A stretch of 64,000 bases of DNA from Desulfatiglandales bacterium (GTDB taxonomy: Bacteria > Desulfobacterota > DSM-4660 > Desulfatiglandales > Desulfatiglandaceae): positions 3,136,001-3,200,000 of the forward strand of contig OY762721.1 of NCBI GenBank assembly GCA_963666345.1, written 5' to 3'. The stretch's first letter is position 1. Each line of letters opens with the position of its first letter. Under the pieces are notes generated by a model, which did not search any database, was not told the DNA's origin, and saw only the letters and a program-made list of their open reading frames with translations. Below are positions 39,854 through 59,414 of the stretch, piece by piece. A program made the position numbers and the translations under genes.

Positions 39854-40995
39854 AATTCAAGAGTGTCGTTATACTGTCGATTGTGATGGCTGTCGCGGGG
39901 GCGGCCCTATTTGCCTTTTTGCAATTTAGAAACGAGGATCAGCCTGACCGTGAGCTTGGGGCCTATTTCCTGGAGGGGCTTCCGGCAAACAAGATAAACT
40001 CTATTGAAATAAAGTCGAAAGACGGGGCGGTTTCCCTCAAAAAGAGCGATTCCGAATGGGTTGTGACGGATCGCTACAATTACCCCGCTCAATTTTCAAA
40101 GATCTCAGGCCTTGTGAGGAAACTCAAGGATCTCAAGGTGGGAAGACGCTTTGAGGCCTCTGAGGGGAGCCTTGAAAGACTTTCACTTTACTCGCCTGAT
40201 GATCCTCAAGCCCCTGATAAGGCCGAGGGCACTCGGATTGAGCTCAAAGACGAAAAGGGAAATCTGCTTTCTGGGATAGTCCTTGGAAAGGTAAGAAAAA
40301 GCGGCCCTGACAGGAATATCTCCGACGGACACTATGTGATCAGGGATGGAGCCCCTGACATATATCTGGTCGACAAGCACTTTGAATATCTTGATAAGGC
40401 TCCTTCCGAATGGCTTGAAAAAGAACTTGTCAAAGTTGAGCAGAAAGATATCAAGGAGATAGTTTGTCTTGACAATAAAAAGGTACTGTTTTCTCTAAGG
40501 AAACAAAAGGAGGGTGAAGATTTCAGACTATCACCCATGAGAAAAGGGGAGAAGGTGAAGGAGCAGGCCGTAAAGAGGCTTTCTACCGCCATCTCTTCCC
40601 TGAGGCTTGAAGATGTTGCTGATCCTGGGCTCCCGCTCAAAGATACCGGGATAGATGAGACTCCCGACCTGGAATTCAGGCTGTTTAACGGGATGGTCTA
40701 TCGTCTGCTGCCGGGTAAATCGGTTGCTGATGAAGACGGATTCTATCTCAGGATCGTGGTATCATGCCAAAAGAAACCTGTGACTGAAAATAAGGCAACA
40801 GGCGATAAGGGGTCCGAGGAGGAGGGAGCCGAGGCTGAAAAGCTTGAAGAGGATACTCTTCCAAGGTCCGAGCAGTTGCGGAAACGTTTTTCTCCCTGGA
40901 CCTTCAAGATATCCAAGTGGCAGTATGAATCCTTTATCACTGAGAAAGATGAGTTATTCGAAACGCCTGAAGACAAAAAAAAGGAGGGGGCATAA
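39850..40995 (+). CDS. DUF4340 domain membrane-anchored protein
   Basis: N-terminal anchor, repeated beta-rich units, usual position after a GldG-like gene. Confidence 0.75.
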   Translation: MKFKSVVILSIVMAVAGAALFAFLQFRNEDQPDRELGAYFLEGLPANKINSIEIKSKDGAVSLKKSDSEWVVTDRYNYPAQFSKISGLVRKLKDLKVGRRFEASEGSLERLSLYSPDDPQAPDKAEGTRIELKDEKGNLLSGIVLGKVRKSGPDRNISDGHYVIRDGAPDIYLVDKHFEYLDKAPSEWLEKELVKVEQKDIKEIVCLDNKKVLFSLRKQKEGEDFRLSPMRKGEKVKEQAVKRLSTAISSLRLEDVADPGLPLKDTGIDETPDLEFRLFNGMVYRLLPGKSVADEDGFYLRIVVSCQKKPVTENKATGDKGSEEEGAEAEKLEEDTLPRSEQLRKRFSPWTFKISKWQYESFITEKDELFETPEDKKKEGA

Positions 40996-41063
40996 TAATT
41001 GCCGAGACACAAAAAGTTGTCCGGATAAGCAGCCTGTGTGATAAAAAATATTACGGGCATGCG

Positions 41064-41236
41064 TGATCACTTAACTCGTCCCCTCCAGAAATGATTCATT
41101 TCTGGATGTTTCCTTCAGCTGTCAGCTATCAGCAAGTAGCCAACAAATTGATATCTCAAGTGTTTTACTGACTGTTGAGAGCTTATTGCTGATAGCGTGA
41201 GTCCATAAATCTTGATTTATGGATGATCACTAACTC
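41064..41236. mobile_element. Palindromic MITE/REP-like element
   Basis: Two palindromes TCCAGAAATGA-T-TCATTTCTGGA (41084-41106) and TCCATAAATC-TT-GATTTATGGA (41202-41223); inverted 7-mer GCTRTCA arrays; flanked by TGATCACT(T)AACTC direct repeats. Confidence 0.65.
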
Positions 41237-41298
41237 ATAATTGTGAAATTATAGAAACAGGCAACGAAAGCTGGAGGATGAAACACGCAGCTTCATAG
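41230..41298 (+). pseudogene. istB: IS21-family istB 3' remnant
   Basis: Translates LTHNCEIIETGNESWRMKHAAS*, which matches the IstB C-terminal motif (LxHxxxIIETGNxSxR). Confidence 0.8.
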
Positions 41299-41346
41299 GT
41301 AAAAAAGAGCTCAACTCTTAAACTATTTAACCATTTTTTTACTCAA

Positions 41347-41370
41347 GGGTGGGTCAATTTTCAACGCCTG
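41347..41370 (+). mobile_element. IS21-family right terminal repeat remnant
   Basis: GGGTGGGTCAATTTTCAACGCC, ~50 nt after the istB stop; typical of IS21 ends. Confidence 0.65.
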
Positions 41371-41488
41371 TCGGAAACCATTTTTACCTGTTCGGTATTT
41401 TCCCGGATTTTTAATACCTTGAACAAAGCGCTTCAGGGTTTATATTAAAAAGGCATGAGTTGCTTTATGAAAATCGGGGAGGTCTGAA

Positions 41489-41689
41489 ATGGGTGAAAAA
41501 ATCAATGACCTGAATGGCAGTTATTGTAAGATACCGGCAAAAAAGAAGGGGTGGTGGGGCAGATTTCTGGAAAAGCTCGAAAATTCCAGGGAAAATCAGG
41601 CCGCCTGTGTAGCCTGAGGGGGACCTGATGTCGTCCGGGCCGGACGAGAAAAATGGAATGAGAATAAAGGGATAAAGCAGGACCTTTGA
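41489..41689 (+). CDS. Small candidate selenoprotein (CxxU); 42 aa if UGA 41615-41617 is a stop, 66 aa if read as Sec
   Basis: RBS GGGGAGG; MGEKINDLNGSYCKIPAKKKGWWGRFLEKLENSRENQAACVA-UGA-GGPDVVRAGREKWNENKGIKQDL*; SECIS-like hairpin; downstream terminator. Confidence 0.6.
41631..41647 (+). promoter_or_regulatory. Putative bacterial SECIS element
   Basis: 7-bp stem TCGTCCG/CGGACGA, G-rich loop GGC, loop 20 nt after the in-frame UGA. Confidence 0.55.
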
Positions 41690-41775
41690 ATAAGGTTCAA
41701 ATTATTTCTGATCTGCATGGATTAAATTATTTGGTAATAGCAAGGGAATAAAACAGCAACTTGGATGATTTTTTT

Positions 41776-41806
41776 AAGGCAGGGTCTTTATGACCCTGCC
41801 TTTTTT
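41776..41806 (+). terminator. Rho-independent terminator
   Basis: AAGGCAGGGTC-TTTAT-GACCCTGCCTT followed by a T-run. Confidence 0.85.
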
Positions 41807-41829
41807 ATTGATCTTTTACGCGTTGATAA

Positions 41830-41898
41830 TATTTCGTATATAGATATTTTGTGTACGAAAAATATATCATTGACATGTCCTAACCTGCATGATATCTG
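41830..41898 (+). promoter_or_regulatory. EctR/CosR-like operator(s) and promoter of marR-proVWX
   Basis: TATTTCGT-AT-ATAGATAT and TATTTTGT-GT-ACGAAAAA just upstream of TTGACA (41870-41875). Confidence 0.55.
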
Positions 41899-41999
41899 AT
41901 GATATGATTTCAGCTGGATATAATTTATGGTGAAAATTTAATTGCCAAATAAATAAATTTCCGCAGTAAACAGATCGTGAATCGAAAAGAGGTTAGCAA

Positions 42000-42446
42000 G
42001 TGGAACGGGCGGTAATGCATGCCGAAAGCATATTTCATTCTTTGAGGCGTATAACCCACGCACTTGCCCAGCATAGCAGGCAATTGAACGACAGGTTTAA
42101 CCTGACTGTTCCTCAGGTCTTATGTCTGAGGCAATTGCTCGGTAAGGGGCCGTCTACGATCGGAGACCTGGCTAAAAGTTCTTACTTCAGTCAGGCCACT
42201 ATAACCGGCATTGTTGACAGGCTGGAATCCCGCGGACTTGTGCAAAGGGACCGTAACGACTTTGACAGGAGAAGGGTGATCGTATCTCTCACCGATAAGG
42301 GAAAGGAGCTTGCATGTGATATGCCTGGTCCGCTGCAGGACCGGTTTGCGACTGAATTGAAAGCGTTATGTGAGGAAGATCGAGACCGGATCGACATGGT
42401 ATTGAAGCAGTTGGTTGACATGATGGAGGGGAGAAAAGGTACATAA
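42000..42446 (+). CDS. MarR-family regulator (EctR/CosR-like)
   Basis: SLRRI...HSRQL...LTVPQVLCL, SQATITGIVDRLE, DRRRV; precedes a betaine ABC importer. Confidence 0.88.
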   Translation: MERAVMHAESIFHSLRRITHALAQHSRQLNDRFNLTVPQVLCLRQLLGKGPSTIGDLAKSSYFSQATITGIVDRLESRGLVQRDRNDFDRRRVIVSLTDKGKELACDMPGPLQDRFATELKALCEEDRDRIDMVLKQLVDMMEGRKGT

Positions 42447-42612: not shown

Positions 42613-43815
42613 ATGGAAGAGAAAATAGCAATAGAAAATCTTTACAAGATCTTTGGGCCTCATCCTGAAAAGGCGATAAAGCTTTTGAAGGAAGGGCAGA
42701 CCAAAGATCAAATAATGGAGAAGACGAAACATGGAGTGGGTGTTGCAGATGCCTCTTTCGTGGTCAACGAGGGAGAAATCCTTGTTGTGATGGGGCTTTC
42801 GGGTAGTGGAAAATCGACCCTGATAAGATGCATAAACAGACTCATTGAGCCGACTTCCGGGAAGGTTATCGTGAACGGTGAGGATGTTACATCTCTTTCC
42901 CCCGAACGGCTAAGGATGTTCAGACAGCATCATTTTGGAATGGTCTTCCAGAATTTCGCGCTTTTTCCCCACAGAACGGTTATCAAAAATGTTGAGTACG
43001 GACTGGAAGTCCAGAATGTGGATCCAAATATCAGGTATGAAAGATCCATGCAGGCCCTTGAGCAGGTAGGCCTTAAAGGGTGGGAGGACGTATATCCCGC
43101 GCAGCTCAGCGGTGGAATGCAGCAGCGGGTGGGACTTGCGAGGGCACTTGCCCTGGATGCCGATATTATGCTTATGGATGAGGCATTCAGCGCACTTGAT
43201 CCTCTTATCCGCAGGGACATGCAGGATGAACTTCTGGCCCTTCAGGAGAGCGTGCATAAGACAATCGTTTTCATAAGTCACGATCTTGATGAGGCACTTA
43301 AACTGGGAGACAGAATCGTTCTGATGAAGGACGGAGTTATAGTTCAGGAGGGAACCGCAGAGGAGATATTGACTAATCCCGCCAATGACTATGTTGCAAA
43401 ATTTGTGGAAGAAGTGGACATGAGCAAGGTCATCACGGCGGAGTCGGTGATGGTTAAGCCTGCGGCCATTGCCTCGTTTAAAACGGACGGCCCCCGTGCG
43501 GCCATGAGAAAGATGAAGCATGCAGGCATATCGAGCATATTCGTAAGGCATGAAGGCAACCTGATCGGAATGGTTACGGCCGACTCGGTAATAGAAGCAA
43601 TCAAGAACGGGGAGAAAAGCCTGGAAAGTTCATTGATAAAGGATTTGCCAACGGTAAGTCCCGACACTCGTGCCATAGATCTTTTCCAGCATCTTGCGGA
43701 ATTAAGCTATCCCTTGGCGGTTGTGGATGAGAATAAAAAATTGAAGGGAATAATAATAAAGGGGACGCTCCTTGCTGCCCTTGCCGAGGGAAGACATAAC
43801 GGGGGGACGGAATAA
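42613..43815 (+). CDS. proV: Glycine betaine/L-proline ABC transporter ATP-binding protein (ProV/OpuAA) with CBS pair
   Basis: NLYKIFG, MGLSGSGKST, LSGGMQQRVGLARAL, MDEAFSALDPLIR. Confidence 0.94.
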   Translation: MEEKIAIENLYKIFGPHPEKAIKLLKEGQTKDQIMEKTKHGVGVADASFVVNEGEILVVMGLSGSGKSTLIRCINRLIEPTSGKVIVNGEDVTSLSPERLRMFRQHHFGMVFQNFALFPHRTVIKNVEYGLEVQNVDPNIRYERSMQALEQVGLKGWEDVYPAQLSGGMQQRVGLARALALDADIMLMDEAFSALDPLIRRDMQDELLALQESVHKTIVFISHDLDEALKLGDRIVLMKDGVIVQEGTAEEILTNPANDYVAKFVEEVDMSKVITAESVMVKPAAIASFKTDGPRAAMRKMKHAGISSIFVRHEGNLIGMVTADSVIEAIKNGEKSLESSLIKDLPTVSPDTRAIDLFQHLAELSYPLAVVDENKKLKGIIIKGTLLAALAEGRHNGGTE

Positions 43816-44651
43816 TGGAACAGTTCAAGATACCCATCGGGTCGGTAATTGAAGGTATAATTAATTTTTTCGTTGATCATTTTGCCTTTCTTACAAAGGC
43901 CTTTTCCAAGGTCACTGAACATGGCATAGAAATGCTTGTCAATCTCATGATGTTTTTCCCGCCCTGGCTTCTGATCCTGTTTTTTGCAGCCCTTGCCTAT
44001 ATCCTTACAAAGAAAAGGGGCATTGTCCTTTTCACTTTTCTGGGGCTCTGTCTCATATGGAACCTGGGACTGTGGCCGCCTACGGTGAGCACTCTTTCGC
44101 TGGTTCTCATATCGACGCTATTTGCAATTGCCATAGGTGTCCCGCTAGGCATTCTGGCGGCTATAAGCAATATCTTTTACAGGATCATAATGCCGATTCT
44201 TGATTTCATGCAGACAATGCCTGCGTTTGTGTATCTGATCCCGGCGATTCCCTTTTTCGGGCTTGGTCCTGTGGCCGCCATCTTTTCAACGGTTATTTTT
44301 TCCATGCCTCCGGCCATAAGGCTTACCTGCCTCGGCATCAAGCAGGTACCTAAGGAACTGGTGGAGGCCGCCGATGCGTTCGGCAGCAGCAAGGCCCAGA
44401 AACTTTTCAAGCTCCAGCTCCCCATTGCCACTCCTACAATTATGGCGGGAATCAACCAGACCATCATGCTTGCCCTTTCAATGGTCGTTATAGCCGCGAT
44501 GATCGGGGCGAAAGGCCTAGGAGGCGAGGTATGGAAGGCGATACAGAGGCTTCAGCCTGACAAGGGATTTGAGGCTGGTATCGGTATAGTTATAGTTGCA
44601 ATTATCCTTGACAGGATAATGCAGCAGTTCGGCACCAAAAAGGAGTCCTGA
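43815..44651 (+). CDS. proW: Glycine betaine/proline ABC transporter permease
   Basis: PILDFMQTMPAFVYLIP, AGINQTIMLALSMVVIA. Confidence 0.94.
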   Translation: MEQFKIPIGSVIEGIINFFVDHFAFLTKAFSKVTEHGIEMLVNLMMFFPPWLLILFFAALAYILTKKRGIVLFTFLGLCLIWNLGLWPPTVSTLSLVLISTLFAIAIGVPLGILAAISNIFYRIIMPILDFMQTMPAFVYLIPAIPFFGLGPVAAIFSTVIFSMPPAIRLTCLGIKQVPKELVEAADAFGSSKAQKLFKLQLPIATPTIMAGINQTIMLALSMVVIAAMIGAKGLGGEVWKAIQRLQPDKGFEAGIGIVIVAIILDRIMQQFGTKKES

Positions 44652-57248: not shown

Positions 57249-59414
57249 ATGTATGAGTTCAAGTATTCCAACATTGAAAGGGAGATGAAGGTCTATGGTT
57301 ATGATTCAGTAACGAAGAGTCATTGCCGGATGTGTCATGGCGGGTGCGGGGTTCTTGTCTACGTGAAGGACGACAAAGTTGCAAAGATCGCGGGTGATCC
57401 TGACTGCCCGATCAATCACGGCACCCTATGCAGCAAAGGAATCGCATCCGCGCAGCTTGCCTATCACCCTGACCGGATCACCTATCCGGTCAAAAGGATG
57501 GGGGCCAAGGGGAGCGGCAGATGGAAACGGATCTCCTGGGATGAGGCCCTCGACCTGATTGCAGCCAGAATCCTTGATTATAAGGATAGATACGGCGCTG
57601 AATCGGTCGTCATGGGATATGGGACAGGAAGGGAGAACGAGGCCGTTATCTATCGTTTTGCAAACCTTCTGGGCAGCCCCAACGTTCTGACCGCAGGTCA
57701 TTTCTGTTACGGCCCCCGGATTGCCACATCCATAATTACCTGTGGTACCAACCCGATCGTGGATTATGAAAACAAGCCCGAATGCATAATGGCCTGGGGA
57801 AGCAACATCGTCATCAGCAACCCCGACGAGTATAAGGGAGAGTCTTTATCCGTTGCTCTGGATAATGGGGCAAGGCTCATTGTAGTGGATCCCAGAATGA
57901 CGCGCCTTGCGGCAAGGGCCGATATATGGCTTCAGCTGAGACCCGGCACCGATGCGGCTCTTGCCCTCGGAATCCTGAATGTTATCATTAATGAAGGTCT
58001 GCATGACAAGGAATTTGTCGAAAATCATGTCCATGGGTGGACTCCTTTTGTGGAACGGGTAAACCAGTACCCTCTTGAGAGGGTGGAAGAAATTACCTGG
58101 GTGCCGAGGGATAAGATAGAGAGAGCTGCACGGGTCTTTGCCTCTGCCGGATCTGCCGCGGTTCAATGGGGTGTCGCCATCGAGCAGCAGGTCAATTGCG
58201 CGGACAATGACAGGCTGCTGGTAGCTATCATGGGGATAACCGGCAACATCGATGCCCCAGGCGGGCAGGTCCTTTTTCAGCAGCCCAAGATCAGGAATGT
58301 GGGCCATTTCGGAGCCCACAGGATACTGCCGGACATTCAACGCGAAAAAAGGCTCGGCGGGGACCGGTTCCGGCTTGGGGGTAACTTTGCCATAATCAAT
58401 CCCAAATGCGTGTGGGACGCCGTTCTGGAAGAAAAGCCCTACCCTGTAAAGATGCTCTTTTTTATAAGTTCAAATCCGCTTATGACCAGGGGAAATGCAA
58501 AAGAGGTCTACCGGGCGCTTGAAAAGGTTGATTTTATGGCGGTGTCCGATTTTTTTATCACGCCAACCGCCGAGATGGCGGACATAGTCCTGCCTGCCGC
58601 CACCTGGCTTGAGATGGATTACATAGGTGATTTCTGGAAACGGCACGGGTACATCCTGCCGAGAAGAAAAGTGGTTCAGGTGGGGGAGTGCCGCTCGGAC
58701 CATGAGATGCTCAATGACCTGGCGCACAGGGTAGGGCAGGGTGAGCAGTGGTGGGATAATTTTGAACAGGCACTTGACTGGATACTGGAGCCGCTTGACA
58801 TTACATGGCAGGATTTCAAGAAAATGGACTACCTGAGAGGGGAGGTCGTCAACCTGAAATACAGGGAAAGAGGATTTTCGACCCCTTCACGAAAGCTGGA
58901 GCTCTACTCCACGAGCTTAGAAAAATTGGGGTATGACCCCCTGCCTCAATTCAGGGAACCACCTGAAAGTCCTTACAGTACACCTGAATTATATAAGAAA
59001 TTCTCCTATATCCTGATCACCGGGCGAAGGCTTCCGGGTTTTTTTCATTCAGAGAACAGGCAACTGCCATGGATGCGGGAACTCCATAGAGATCCAGTGG
59101 TTGAAATCCATCCTGAAGCGGCTGAAAAGGAAGGTATTAAAGAGGGCCAGTGGGTGATAATCGAATCCCCCCGCGGCAGGATAAGGCAAAGGGCGAAACT
59201 TTTTGCCGGGATGGACAAAAGGGTCATATCCGCCGAGCATGGCTGGTGGTTTCCGGAGCAAAAGGACCCGAGTCATGGCTGGCAAGAGTCAAACGTGAAC
59301 ATCCTGACCGACAATGCCTATGAGGCGTGTGATCCGGCAATGGGCGCAACGCATGTGAGGACGCTTCTCTGCAGGGTGTATCCTGAAGAGGCAAAAAAAG
59401 GAGACACGGCATGA
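57249..59414 (+). CDS. Molybdopterin (Mo/W-bisPGD) oxidoreductase, acetylene-hydratase-like clade
   Basis: CRMCHGGC...C [4Fe-4S], ISWDEALD, GHFCYG (Cys ligand), LRPGTDAAL, ADIVLPAA, HGWWFPE; no Tat signal. Confidence 0.9.
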   Translation: MYEFKYSNIEREMKVYGYDSVTKSHCRMCHGGCGVLVYVKDDKVAKIAGDPDCPINHGTLCSKGIASAQLAYHPDRITYPVKRMGAKGSGRWKRISWDEALDLIAARILDYKDRYGAESVVMGYGTGRENEAVIYRFANLLGSPNVLTAGHFCYGPRIATSIITCGTNPIVDYENKPECIMAWGSNIVISNPDEYKGESLSVALDNGARLIVVDPRMTRLAARADIWLQLRPGTDAALALGILNVIINEGLHDKEFVENHVHGWTPFVERVNQYPLERVEEITWVPRDKIERAARVFASAGSAAVQWGVAIEQQVNCADNDRLLVAIMGITGNIDAPGGQVLFQQPKIRNVGHFGAHRILPDIQREKRLGGDRFRLGGNFAIINPKCVWDAVLEEKPYPVKMLFFISSNPLMTRGNAKEVYRALEKVDFMAVSDFFITPTAEMADIVLPAATWLEMDYIGDFWKRHGYILPRRKVVQVGECRSDHEMLNDLAHRVGQGEQWWDNFEQALDWILEPLDITWQDFKKMDYLRGEVVNLKYRERGFSTPSRKLELYSTSLEKLGYDPLPQFREPPESPYSTPELYKKFSYILITGRRLPGFFHSENRQLPWMRELHRDPVVEIHPEAAEKEGIKEGQWVIIESPRGRIRQRAKLFAGMDKRVISAEHGWWFPEQKDPSHGWQESNVNILTDNAYEACDPAMGATHVRTLLCRVYPEEAKKGDTA

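Follow-up and report, generated by a model that had tools for sequence, protein, structure and literature searches.

Anatomy of a small gene with an in-frame UGA

The window analysed here, a 64,000-nucleotide stretch of a Desulfatiglandales bacterium genome (contig OY762721.1), contains a small forward-strand gene that probably encodes a selenoprotein of an uncatalogued family. The open reading frame (ORF) starting at ATG 41489 encodes MGEKINDLNGSYCKIPAKKKGWWGRFLEKLENSRENQAACVA, and its next codon is TGA (41615-41617). A first-pass annotation, made from the DNA sequence alone, had proposed that this UGA is decoded as selenocysteine (Sec) in a CxxU motif. The ribosome binding site, the start codon and the CxxU-type TGA on which it drew are all found in the sequence, and the frame is indeed open for 23 codons past the UGA, up to a second stop codon (TGA 41687-41689). 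A scan also recovered the promoter-like (41419-41446) and terminator-like (from 41776) sites, the promoter being weak, and the monocistronic layout suggested for the gene is consistent with both. The terminator-like site (41776..41810) likely represents the end of a monocistronic transcript. The supposed invisibility of the gene to gene callers holds only in part, as the truncated 42-residue form is already recorded as an unnamed protein. The features of the locus are collected in the table below.

The perfect 7-bp hairpin described downstream of the UGA is present. It consists of TCGTCCG (41631-41637), the loop GGC (41638-41640) and CGGACGA (41641-41647); the loop begins 20 nt past the UGA and no T-run follows the stem. 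In isolation the hairpin folds with -10.7 kcal/mol (z = -2.76), a value equalled by 2 of 200 shuffled sequences, and the whole 101-nt region folds no better than shuffles (z = -0.60). Taken alone, the window hairpin is only suggestive as a sign beyond chance. According to the available text of PMC13188914, bacterial selenocysteine insertion sequence (SECIS) elements have a loop of 3-9 nt, a stem of 4-16 bp, a G in the first two loop positions, a spacing of 16-37 nt and a folding energy of -7.5 kcal/mol or lower; the window hairpin conforms to every one of these published constraints. With its 3-nt loop starting with GG, its 7-bp stem, its 20-nt spacing and its energy of -10.7 kcal/mol, it resembles the bacterial SECIS consensus (bSECISearch model) and the SECIS of the same genome's selD gene. 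The selD loop, GGA, starts 20 nt past its UGA, a geometry equal to that of the window hairpin. The genome's two fdhA-like genes have the loop GGUCU, 18 nt past their UGAs.

The genome carries the machinery for Sec insertion, for which the first-pass annotation had proposed a check. A tRNA-Sec gene was detected at 74.6 bits, above the Rfam cut-off, together with genes for SelA, SelB and SelD, and the organism therefore decodes UGA as Sec. The SelD gene has one in-frame TGA of its own, as does each of the two FdhA-like genes. A further FdhA-like molybdopterin oxidoreductase, encoded in the window at 57303-58037 (G000:C1:3193303-3194037, + strand), has a frame of 739 aa without an in-frame TGA. 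The selB match (G000:C1:3215263-3215400) lies about 15 kb beyond the window end and about 38 kb downstream of the small gene; this closeness is probably coincidental.

Features of the candidate selenoprotein locus, in window positions.
Feature	Position	Strand	Basis and remarks
Promoter-like TTGAAC-16-TATATT	41419..41446	+	Consensus scan, 9/12 matches, weak; putative
Shine-Dalgarno GGGGAGG	41476..41482	+	Direct sequence reading; 6 nt 5' of ATG 41489
Candidate selenoprotein ORF, codons 1-42 (M1 to A42)	41489..41614	+	Translation; homologue alignment
Cys13 codon	41525-27	+	Kept within the window's own subfamily
Amphipathic helix codons, WWGRFLEKLENSREN (predicted; residues 22-36)	41552..41596	+	AlphaFold2; homologous to first half of CC_mini_metal (NF040898)
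Cys40 codon TGT	41606-08	+	Invariant across the family; three codons before TGA, giving C-x-x-TGA
UGA proposed as Sec (U43), giving Cys40-Val-Ala-Sec43	41615..41617	+	TGA at the aligned position in stand-alone homologues; Sec machinery
Post-UGA tail GGPDVVRAGREKWNENKGIKQDL (23 codons) and second stop TGA 41687-89	41618..41689	+	Open frame; conserved only in the window's subfamily
Putative SECIS hairpin	41631..41647	+	7-bp stem, loop GGC; folding and family covariation
Intrinsic-terminator-like hairpin (41776-41802, 11 pairs) and T-run	41776..41810	+	Scan; putative

Conservation of the UGA and the hairpin among relatives

At the DNA level, a search of the locus against 40 relatives returned short terminator-like matches only and no conserved DNA, and a word-index protein search with the 42-aa ORF as query found the query itself as sole match. 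A six-frame protein search of the 40 relatives gave weak matches sharing KKGWWxRFLERLAKAN...GC-x-x-TGA. A profile built from nine members (A1) matched in 89 of the 209 genomes of the order, and 93 loci were examined: the 30 best of the profile search, 60 further ones and 3 from the six-frame search. Among them are 56 stand-alone small ORFs ending in ...C-x-x, found in 56 different genomes with one in each, and 32 longer proteins in which the same helix stands behind a YHS-type domain and the chain ends in ...CC-x or ...C-H. Five loci were set aside: L107 has Arg for the invariant Cys, the frames of L125 and L145 stop short of the motif, and L141 and L155 are weak or spurious. L107 (G151:C5:14304-15178) keeps the TGA (...RKGRRT-TGA). 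The peptide encoded past it, GTRTSGAGGIRK, is similar to the ones in L096 and L105, and the hairpin region of L107 is thus probably kept as well. Decay of the copy or a mistake in the assembly may account for this locus.

All 56 stand-alone ORFs have TGA at the aligned position and none has TAA or TAG, the outcome of a check that had been proposed at the outset. The 32 YHS-fused relatives end in TGA (23), TAA (7) or TAG (2), and the 2114 ORFs of this genome that have 250 codons or more end in TGA (41.6%), TAA (32.2%) or TAG (26.2%). A second, pattern-based retrieval from named species genomes, which overlap those of the first set, gave TGA in 15 of 15 stand-alone forms, and 7 TGA, 11 TAA and 3 TAG in 21 fused forms. 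The base directly after the TGA is a purine in 56/56 stand-alone members. The translated homologue search foreseen in the first-pass annotation thus came out in two ways: TGA stands at the aligned site throughout, but Cys replaces it in none of the homologues.

The hairpin is conserved as well. When 62 nt from the UGA were folded, most stand-alone members showed a 3-nt loop GGN, less often GUN, starting 20-22 nt past the UGA within the core GYGCC-GGN-GGCRC; among the 32 fused relatives, 1 folded in this way at that site. RNAalifold applied to an RNA alignment of 55 distinct sequences (A2; L071, which reaches a contig end, is omitted) predicts a single 6-bp helix with compensatory double changes in 5 of its 6 pairs. 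With the helix taken as 8 pairs, 81.1% of the 440 cells pair, whereas shuffles give 62.5%. Covariation scores 0.484, compared with 0.184 for shuffled alignments, none of which reached it (0/500), and drops to 0.162 or less once the 3' partners are shifted by 1-3 columns. The first base of the loop is G in 55/55 sequences and one C-G pair is invariant. A strict criterion (at least 5 uninterrupted pairs and a 3-nt loop starting with G, 19-24 nt past the stop) is passed by 40 of the 55 members, 39 of which have a spacing of 20-22 nt; the other 15 have loops of 4-6 nt or bulges. The same criterion is passed by 1 of the 32 fused relatives and by 14 of the 879 TGA-ending long ORFs of the genome (1.6%). 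On these comparative data, the hairpin signal lies far above chance.

Past the UGA, constraint on the encoded peptide is limited to the first codon (GGN, Gly). The tails are 2-25 residues long, and in one sub-group a TAG within the 5' arm of the hairpin ends the frame five codons past the UGA. The hairpin is conserved as RNA and not as peptide. The expectation that sequence past the UGA would be conserved is thus borne out for the hairpin, with its fixed spacing, compensatory changes and loop G, but not for the peptide.

A covariance model (R1) built from the 55 hairpins was run over the whole genome. Only the locus itself, which is part of the training set, scored (E 0.0014); further matches had E values of at least 0.27 and were not selenoprotein genes. 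R1 is family-specific and not a general SECIS finder. Four of the further matches fall in a repeat outside the window, with copies at L167:1501-1557 (G000:C1:1285906-1285962, +), L168 (G000:C1:3072848-3072904, -), L171 (G000:C1:1541409-1541465, +) and G000:C1:1770411-1770470 (-). The copies carry short frames ending in ...KSSKCKAC[KE][SP]-TGA, match R1 weakly (E 0.57-1.6) and conserve the stretch GCAATGACGAAAGAYGAAGC in 4/4. In 3/4 copies a 7-bp stem (GGCGTAC...GTACGYC) follows, its loop having no leading G. The repeat does not look like a SECIS and may represent the terminal part of a repeated or mobile element.

The encoded protein, its kin and its gene context

Codon-position entropies across the helix region of 41 members are 0.77, 0.54 and 1.36 for positions 1, 2 and 3, and the ORF 5' of the UGA is evidently coding. 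AlphaFold2, given a 54-row read-through alignment (A3), predicts one helix, residues 22-36, at a predicted local distance difference test (pLDDT) value of 88 for the block; the rest is of low confidence and the mean pLDDT is 61. The amphipathic Trp/Lys helix that had been read from the sequence is thus predicted as the sole structured element. As the sequence reads, W22, W23, F26, L27 and L30 would share one helix face. Cys40 and the UGA are invariant in the family, and W22, W23, R25 and F26 are kept in at least 90% of members. The polar N-terminus suggests that there is no signal peptide. The nearest relatives of the window protein (L130, L151, P0065 and P0071) belong with it to a subfamily that has Cys13 (YCxIP) and the ending ...ACVA-UGA-GGPxVVRAG in common. 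In the ESM Atlas the best score, 0.81, is at chance level. Searches at E values up to 10 gave no match to SelW-like/Rdx CxxU proteins (PF10262, thioredoxin-like fold) or to any other Pfam family, and the structure model shows a single helix only.

The sole family match is NCBIfam NF040898 (CC_mini_metal, 'LDCC motif putative metal-binding protein'), covering profile positions 1-14 or 1-18 of 31; positions 1-14 correspond to window residues 20-33. Against a curated cut-off of 30 bits, the window protein reaches 15.6 and 14.7 bits, and 14.3 bits when the whole genome is searched. Eight relatives reach 15.1-29.5 bits and the range given for stand-alone relatives is 14.4-29.5 bits, every one below the cut-off; one YHS-fused relative passes at 34.3 bits. 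The earlier statement that the protein belongs to no named family was therefore nearly right: all stand-alone forms fall short of the cut-off, but their helix is homologous to the first half of NF040898. The second half of the model, which we take to bear an FG...CC motif, is not matched by the stand-alone forms. Both groups have a basic stretch and the amphipathic helix KKGW[WF]xR[FY]LxRLxKxN in common, and in both the chalcogen ligands stand at the very C-terminal end, presumably so on the NF040898 side. In contrast to the vicinal CC or CH, the stand-alone forms would have C-x-x-Sec, with no CC in 56/56, and they carry the SECIS-like hairpin that the CC/CH forms are without. When hhalign was used to align the stand-alone profile to one made from the last 34 residues of the fused proteins, it gave a probability of 98.5% (E 2.2e-15) over 24 columns, which are the helix; the stand-alone CxxU proteins therefore share a module with CC/CH-ended proteins. 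Stand-alone CC forms are also present (P0043, P0044, P0054 and P0070).

When 401 genomes sampled evenly across the phylum were searched, only 7 outside the order matched, all of them with YHS-fused CH forms. The stand-alone form occurs in records titled Desulfobacteraceae, Desulfobacterales, Desulfatiglandaceae and 'delta proteobacterium', and fused forms are also found under the titles Pseudomonadota, Nitrospinaceae and Hyphomicrobiales. Among 1.84 billion representative proteins, 70 clusters matched at E <= 0.001: 48 end in C-x-x (35-89 residues as called), 15 in CC, CH or CG, and 7 otherwise. Where the sources give a name for these truncated forms, it is 'hypothetical protein'. A C-x-x-C behind the helix is absent from all proteins retrieved.

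The neighbourhood of the gene was scanned at 14 stand-alone loci, with 109 of the 216 candidate neighbour ORFs left out. Local synteny recurs among these loci. Nine have a divergent single-domain response regulator gene upstream, 8 of them together with an aldolase_II or FAA-hydrolase gene, and 2 further loci are flanked by a phosphoglucomutase-like gene on one side and an enoyl-CoA hydratase or methyltransferase gene on the other. At 5 of the 14 loci the gene downstream is a convergent aldolase gene. The window locus differs, with a DUF4340 gene upstream, and downstream a MarR-family regulator gene (42000-42446) followed on the same strand by an ABC-transporter ATPase gene (42613-43815) and a permease-like ORF (43815-44651); the Pfam check of this cluster covered the MarR gene and the start of the ATPase gene. 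The small gene stands alone, and its context points to no functional partner. Among the fused relatives, 4 of 12 loci scanned adjoin heavy-metal genes. An HMA-SurA_N gene lies directly upstream at two of them (L012:1888-2859, -; L024:375-1361, +), and a YHS-HMA gene, which we take to be the start of a P-type ATPase, lies downstream at L159 and L161.

The small CxxU family is not among known selenoproteins in the sources compared. Table 1 of a 2026 catalogue of 119 prokaryotic selenoprotein families (PMC13188914) lists, as far as its available text goes, no mini-protein consisting of a helix plus CxxU. The NCBIfam and Pfam models named in that table do not match the locus, with cd- and PTHR-only entries outside the comparison, and the NCBIfam models that the table credits to Haft and Tolstoy 2025 do not match the window protein. 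NF040734, NF033934, NF041384, NF041197 and other NCBIfam selenoprotein models gave no match at E values up to 10. Literature searches for 'LDCC motif', NF040898 or CC_mini_metal found nothing relevant, the one match being an unrelated ldcC RNA motif, and searches for small Desulfobacter-type SECIS selenoproteins found nothing, the candidates of Haft and Tolstoy 2025 and those of Deng et al. 2026 lying outside the comparison. For a new family, Haft asks for ten or more examples, for TGA in 100% of them and for a stem that resembles a SECIS and has a G in its loop, as given in the available text of 10.1101/2022.07.06.499078; the small CxxU family shows all three.

The closest precedents described in the available part of that source are SaoC (NF040734) and the DUF466 'KCU-star' proteins (NF033934) of the KCU family, which have a terminal Sec and no homology after it (10.1101/2022.07.06.499078). 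As in the small CxxU family, a terminal CC pair is swapped for Cys/Sec; in SaoC the alternatives are Cys-Cys-COOH and Cys-Sec-COOH. In both precedents Sec is at or near the C-terminus and the SECIS lies beyond the ORF or at its end. Both also have a perfect stem with a GGU-type loop after the UGA (10.1101/2022.07.06.499078), and their database entries end at the UGA, as do those of the CxxU family. They differ in showing no sequence similarity to the CxxU family, in the motif, which is CU and not CxxU, and in having Cys forms at the Sec position, of which the CxxU family has none. SaoC, moreover, has about 158 residues according to the same text and carries a signal or lipoprotein peptide; CxxU family members have about 35-65 residues and a polar N-terminus. 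NF041239, the 'CC/Se motif family selenoprotein', is likewise a small CxxU family by the available text of PMC13188914, but the identity was rejected: its 91-position model matches the genome elsewhere, at two loci (52.6 and 42.8 bits), but does not match the small gene. With the YHS (seleno)protein NF041384 there is a YHS link through the Cys-only relatives, one of which gives a faint match below the cut-off (E 0.012); the Sec motif of NF041384 is GxU (PMC13188914, available text) and the window protein has no YHS domain.

Interpretation and alternatives

An invariant UGA, a covarying hairpin at fixed spacing, coding constraint upstream and Sec machinery in the genome are shown by comparison, at the level of sequence. 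We conclude that the small gene most probably encodes a selenoprotein decoded by SelB and a SECIS and belongs to an uncatalogued CxxU family, a reading to which we assign a probability of roughly 0.85. We favour it because the UGA is invariant, because the hairpin covaries at a fixed distance and has a G in its loop, because it matches the selD SECIS, and because the fused relatives contrast with the stand-alone forms on these points. Translation would start at ATG 41489, and the hairpin would recruit SelB and Sec-tRNA(Sec) at the UGA. Sec would be inserted as residue 43 and termination at 41687-41689 would yield a product of 66 residues, with a basic N-terminal stretch, a Trp-rich amphipathic helix (residues 22-36) and a flexible end carrying Cys40-x-x-Sec43. 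Its origin may lie in the CC_mini_metal helix module, which elsewhere stands behind a YHS domain with a CC or CH end and in which a Cys/Sec pair would here have replaced that end.

Several observations weigh against this interpretation. The 56 members are related, so that their counts overstate independence, and TGA is common in the first fused set from the order as well (23/32). No Cys-for-Sec homologue was found among the 93 loci, the 70 best representative clusters and 48 word-index matches. The tails past the UGA track the hairpin sequence and, across the family, are constrained at one codon only. The window hairpin matches no Rfam SECIS model, and its recognition by SelB is a prediction; an Rfam scan of 40900-42100 at E values up to 10 gave 17 matches, none of them a SECIS, the best being noise (L20_leader, 27.3 bits against a cut-off of 58.7). 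Of the order's 209 genomes, 179 give a SelB match, as do 53 of the 56 that carry the gene; the three carriers without one are 65, 83 and 86% complete. As SelB is nearly universal in the order, its co-occurrence with the gene does not discriminate. The sequencing runs found to contain the stretch are three, of DNA or unknown kind and from two studies, with no RNA run among them. The Cys-only relatives end within 1-2 residues of the aligned UGA position, so that the alignment by itself would leave a plain stop conceivable. With regard to function, no metal or redox partner gene was seen around the 14 stand-alone loci scanned, which speaks against a metal-binding role, and metal binding is proposed by way of the CC/CH relatives, their metal-gene neighbours and the chemistry of the motif.

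The strongest alternative is that the UGA is an ordinary stop codon. The product would then be a 42-residue peptide ending in ...C-V-A, a single-Cys variant of the CC_mini_metal tail, and the hairpin would serve to stabilise or process the mRNA or to bind a protein, with no relation to Sec. Such a peptide would agree with the ends of the Cys-only relatives, with the truncated forms that gene callers already predict, with the unconserved tail and missing Cys-for-Sec homologue, and with TGA being the commonest stop in the genome. Under a plain stop, however, TGA in 56/56 diverged members would be unexpected where fused relatives use all three stops, and a stabilising or terminating hairpin needs neither a fixed spacing of 20-22 nt nor an invariant loop G nor a purine after the UGA. 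The hairpin moreover has no U-tail and is identical in geometry to the SECIS of selD in the same genome, and a separate terminator follows further on. We therefore regard an ordinary stop as improbable.

Considerably less probable still is a selenium-sensing leader, in which passage through the UGA would change the RNA structure further downstream and so tie expression of the MarR gene and of a betaine transporter to the supply of Sec-tRNA, and the peptide itself would be functionless. The arrangement of the window, where about 90 nt and a terminator separate the ORF from the same-strand MarR gene and ABC transporter, could be that of a leader, as could a weak second hairpin (GGACCTTTGAATAAGGTTC, 7 pairs, 41680-41698) that overlaps the second stop of the read-through frame. 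The peptide, however, is under clear purifying selection with a conserved helix, this helix is homologous to a module within larger proteins, and the downstream gene is unconserved; where it is a convergent aldolase gene (5 of 14 loci), there is nothing downstream to regulate. A small RNA gene with an incidental open frame, to which a short, intergenic-looking locus with promoter-like and terminator-like sites might otherwise point, can practically be dismissed in view of the three-base substitution periodicity across 41 homologues, the strong and correctly spaced ribosome binding site, the amino-acid homology to a domain of larger proteins and the absence of Rfam matches above noise.

If the selenoprotein reading is adopted, the function of the protein can be addressed only by analogy. 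The Cys/Sec tail might bind Cu(I) or another soft metal ion, or handle a similar thiophilic species, while the helix docks on a membrane surface or on a partner, a proposal that we hold at slightly less than even odds. Alternatively, and with lower probability, the tail could cycle as a selenenylsulfide redox centre. A combined and doubtful scenario would be a Sec-only mini-family of about 40-65 residues without Cys orthologues, derived from a freed CC 'claw' of copper-handling YHS/CC_mini_metal proteins that was rebuilt as Cys-x-x-Sec, in which the Trp/Lys helix would hold the selenol at the inner membrane face and the protein would carry or buffer a thiophilic metal, or selenium itself.

The decoding mechanism proposed here is textbook bacterial, and it is the family itself that is uncatalogued. 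A selenoprotein family without any Cys-for-Sec homologue would be unusual, as nearly all accepted families have such homologues according to the available text of PMC13188914, and families lacking them are missed by pipelines that rely on Cys/Sec pairs (PMC13188914; PMC12013277, as far as their available texts state). If the combined scenario is correct, the family would be among the smallest selenoproteins, and with no Cys counterpart and a very short ORF it would therefore escape homology- and ORF-based selenoprotein finders; more such families may then be hidden in anaerobes. With about 45 residues, a single helix and a Cys/Sec end, such a peptide is easily synthesised and tested. The family would link selenium use to CC_mini_metal, a putative metal-binding module found near YHS/HMA genes, and would raise the selenoprotein count by one in 56 or more genomes from an order of sulfate-reducing bacteria.

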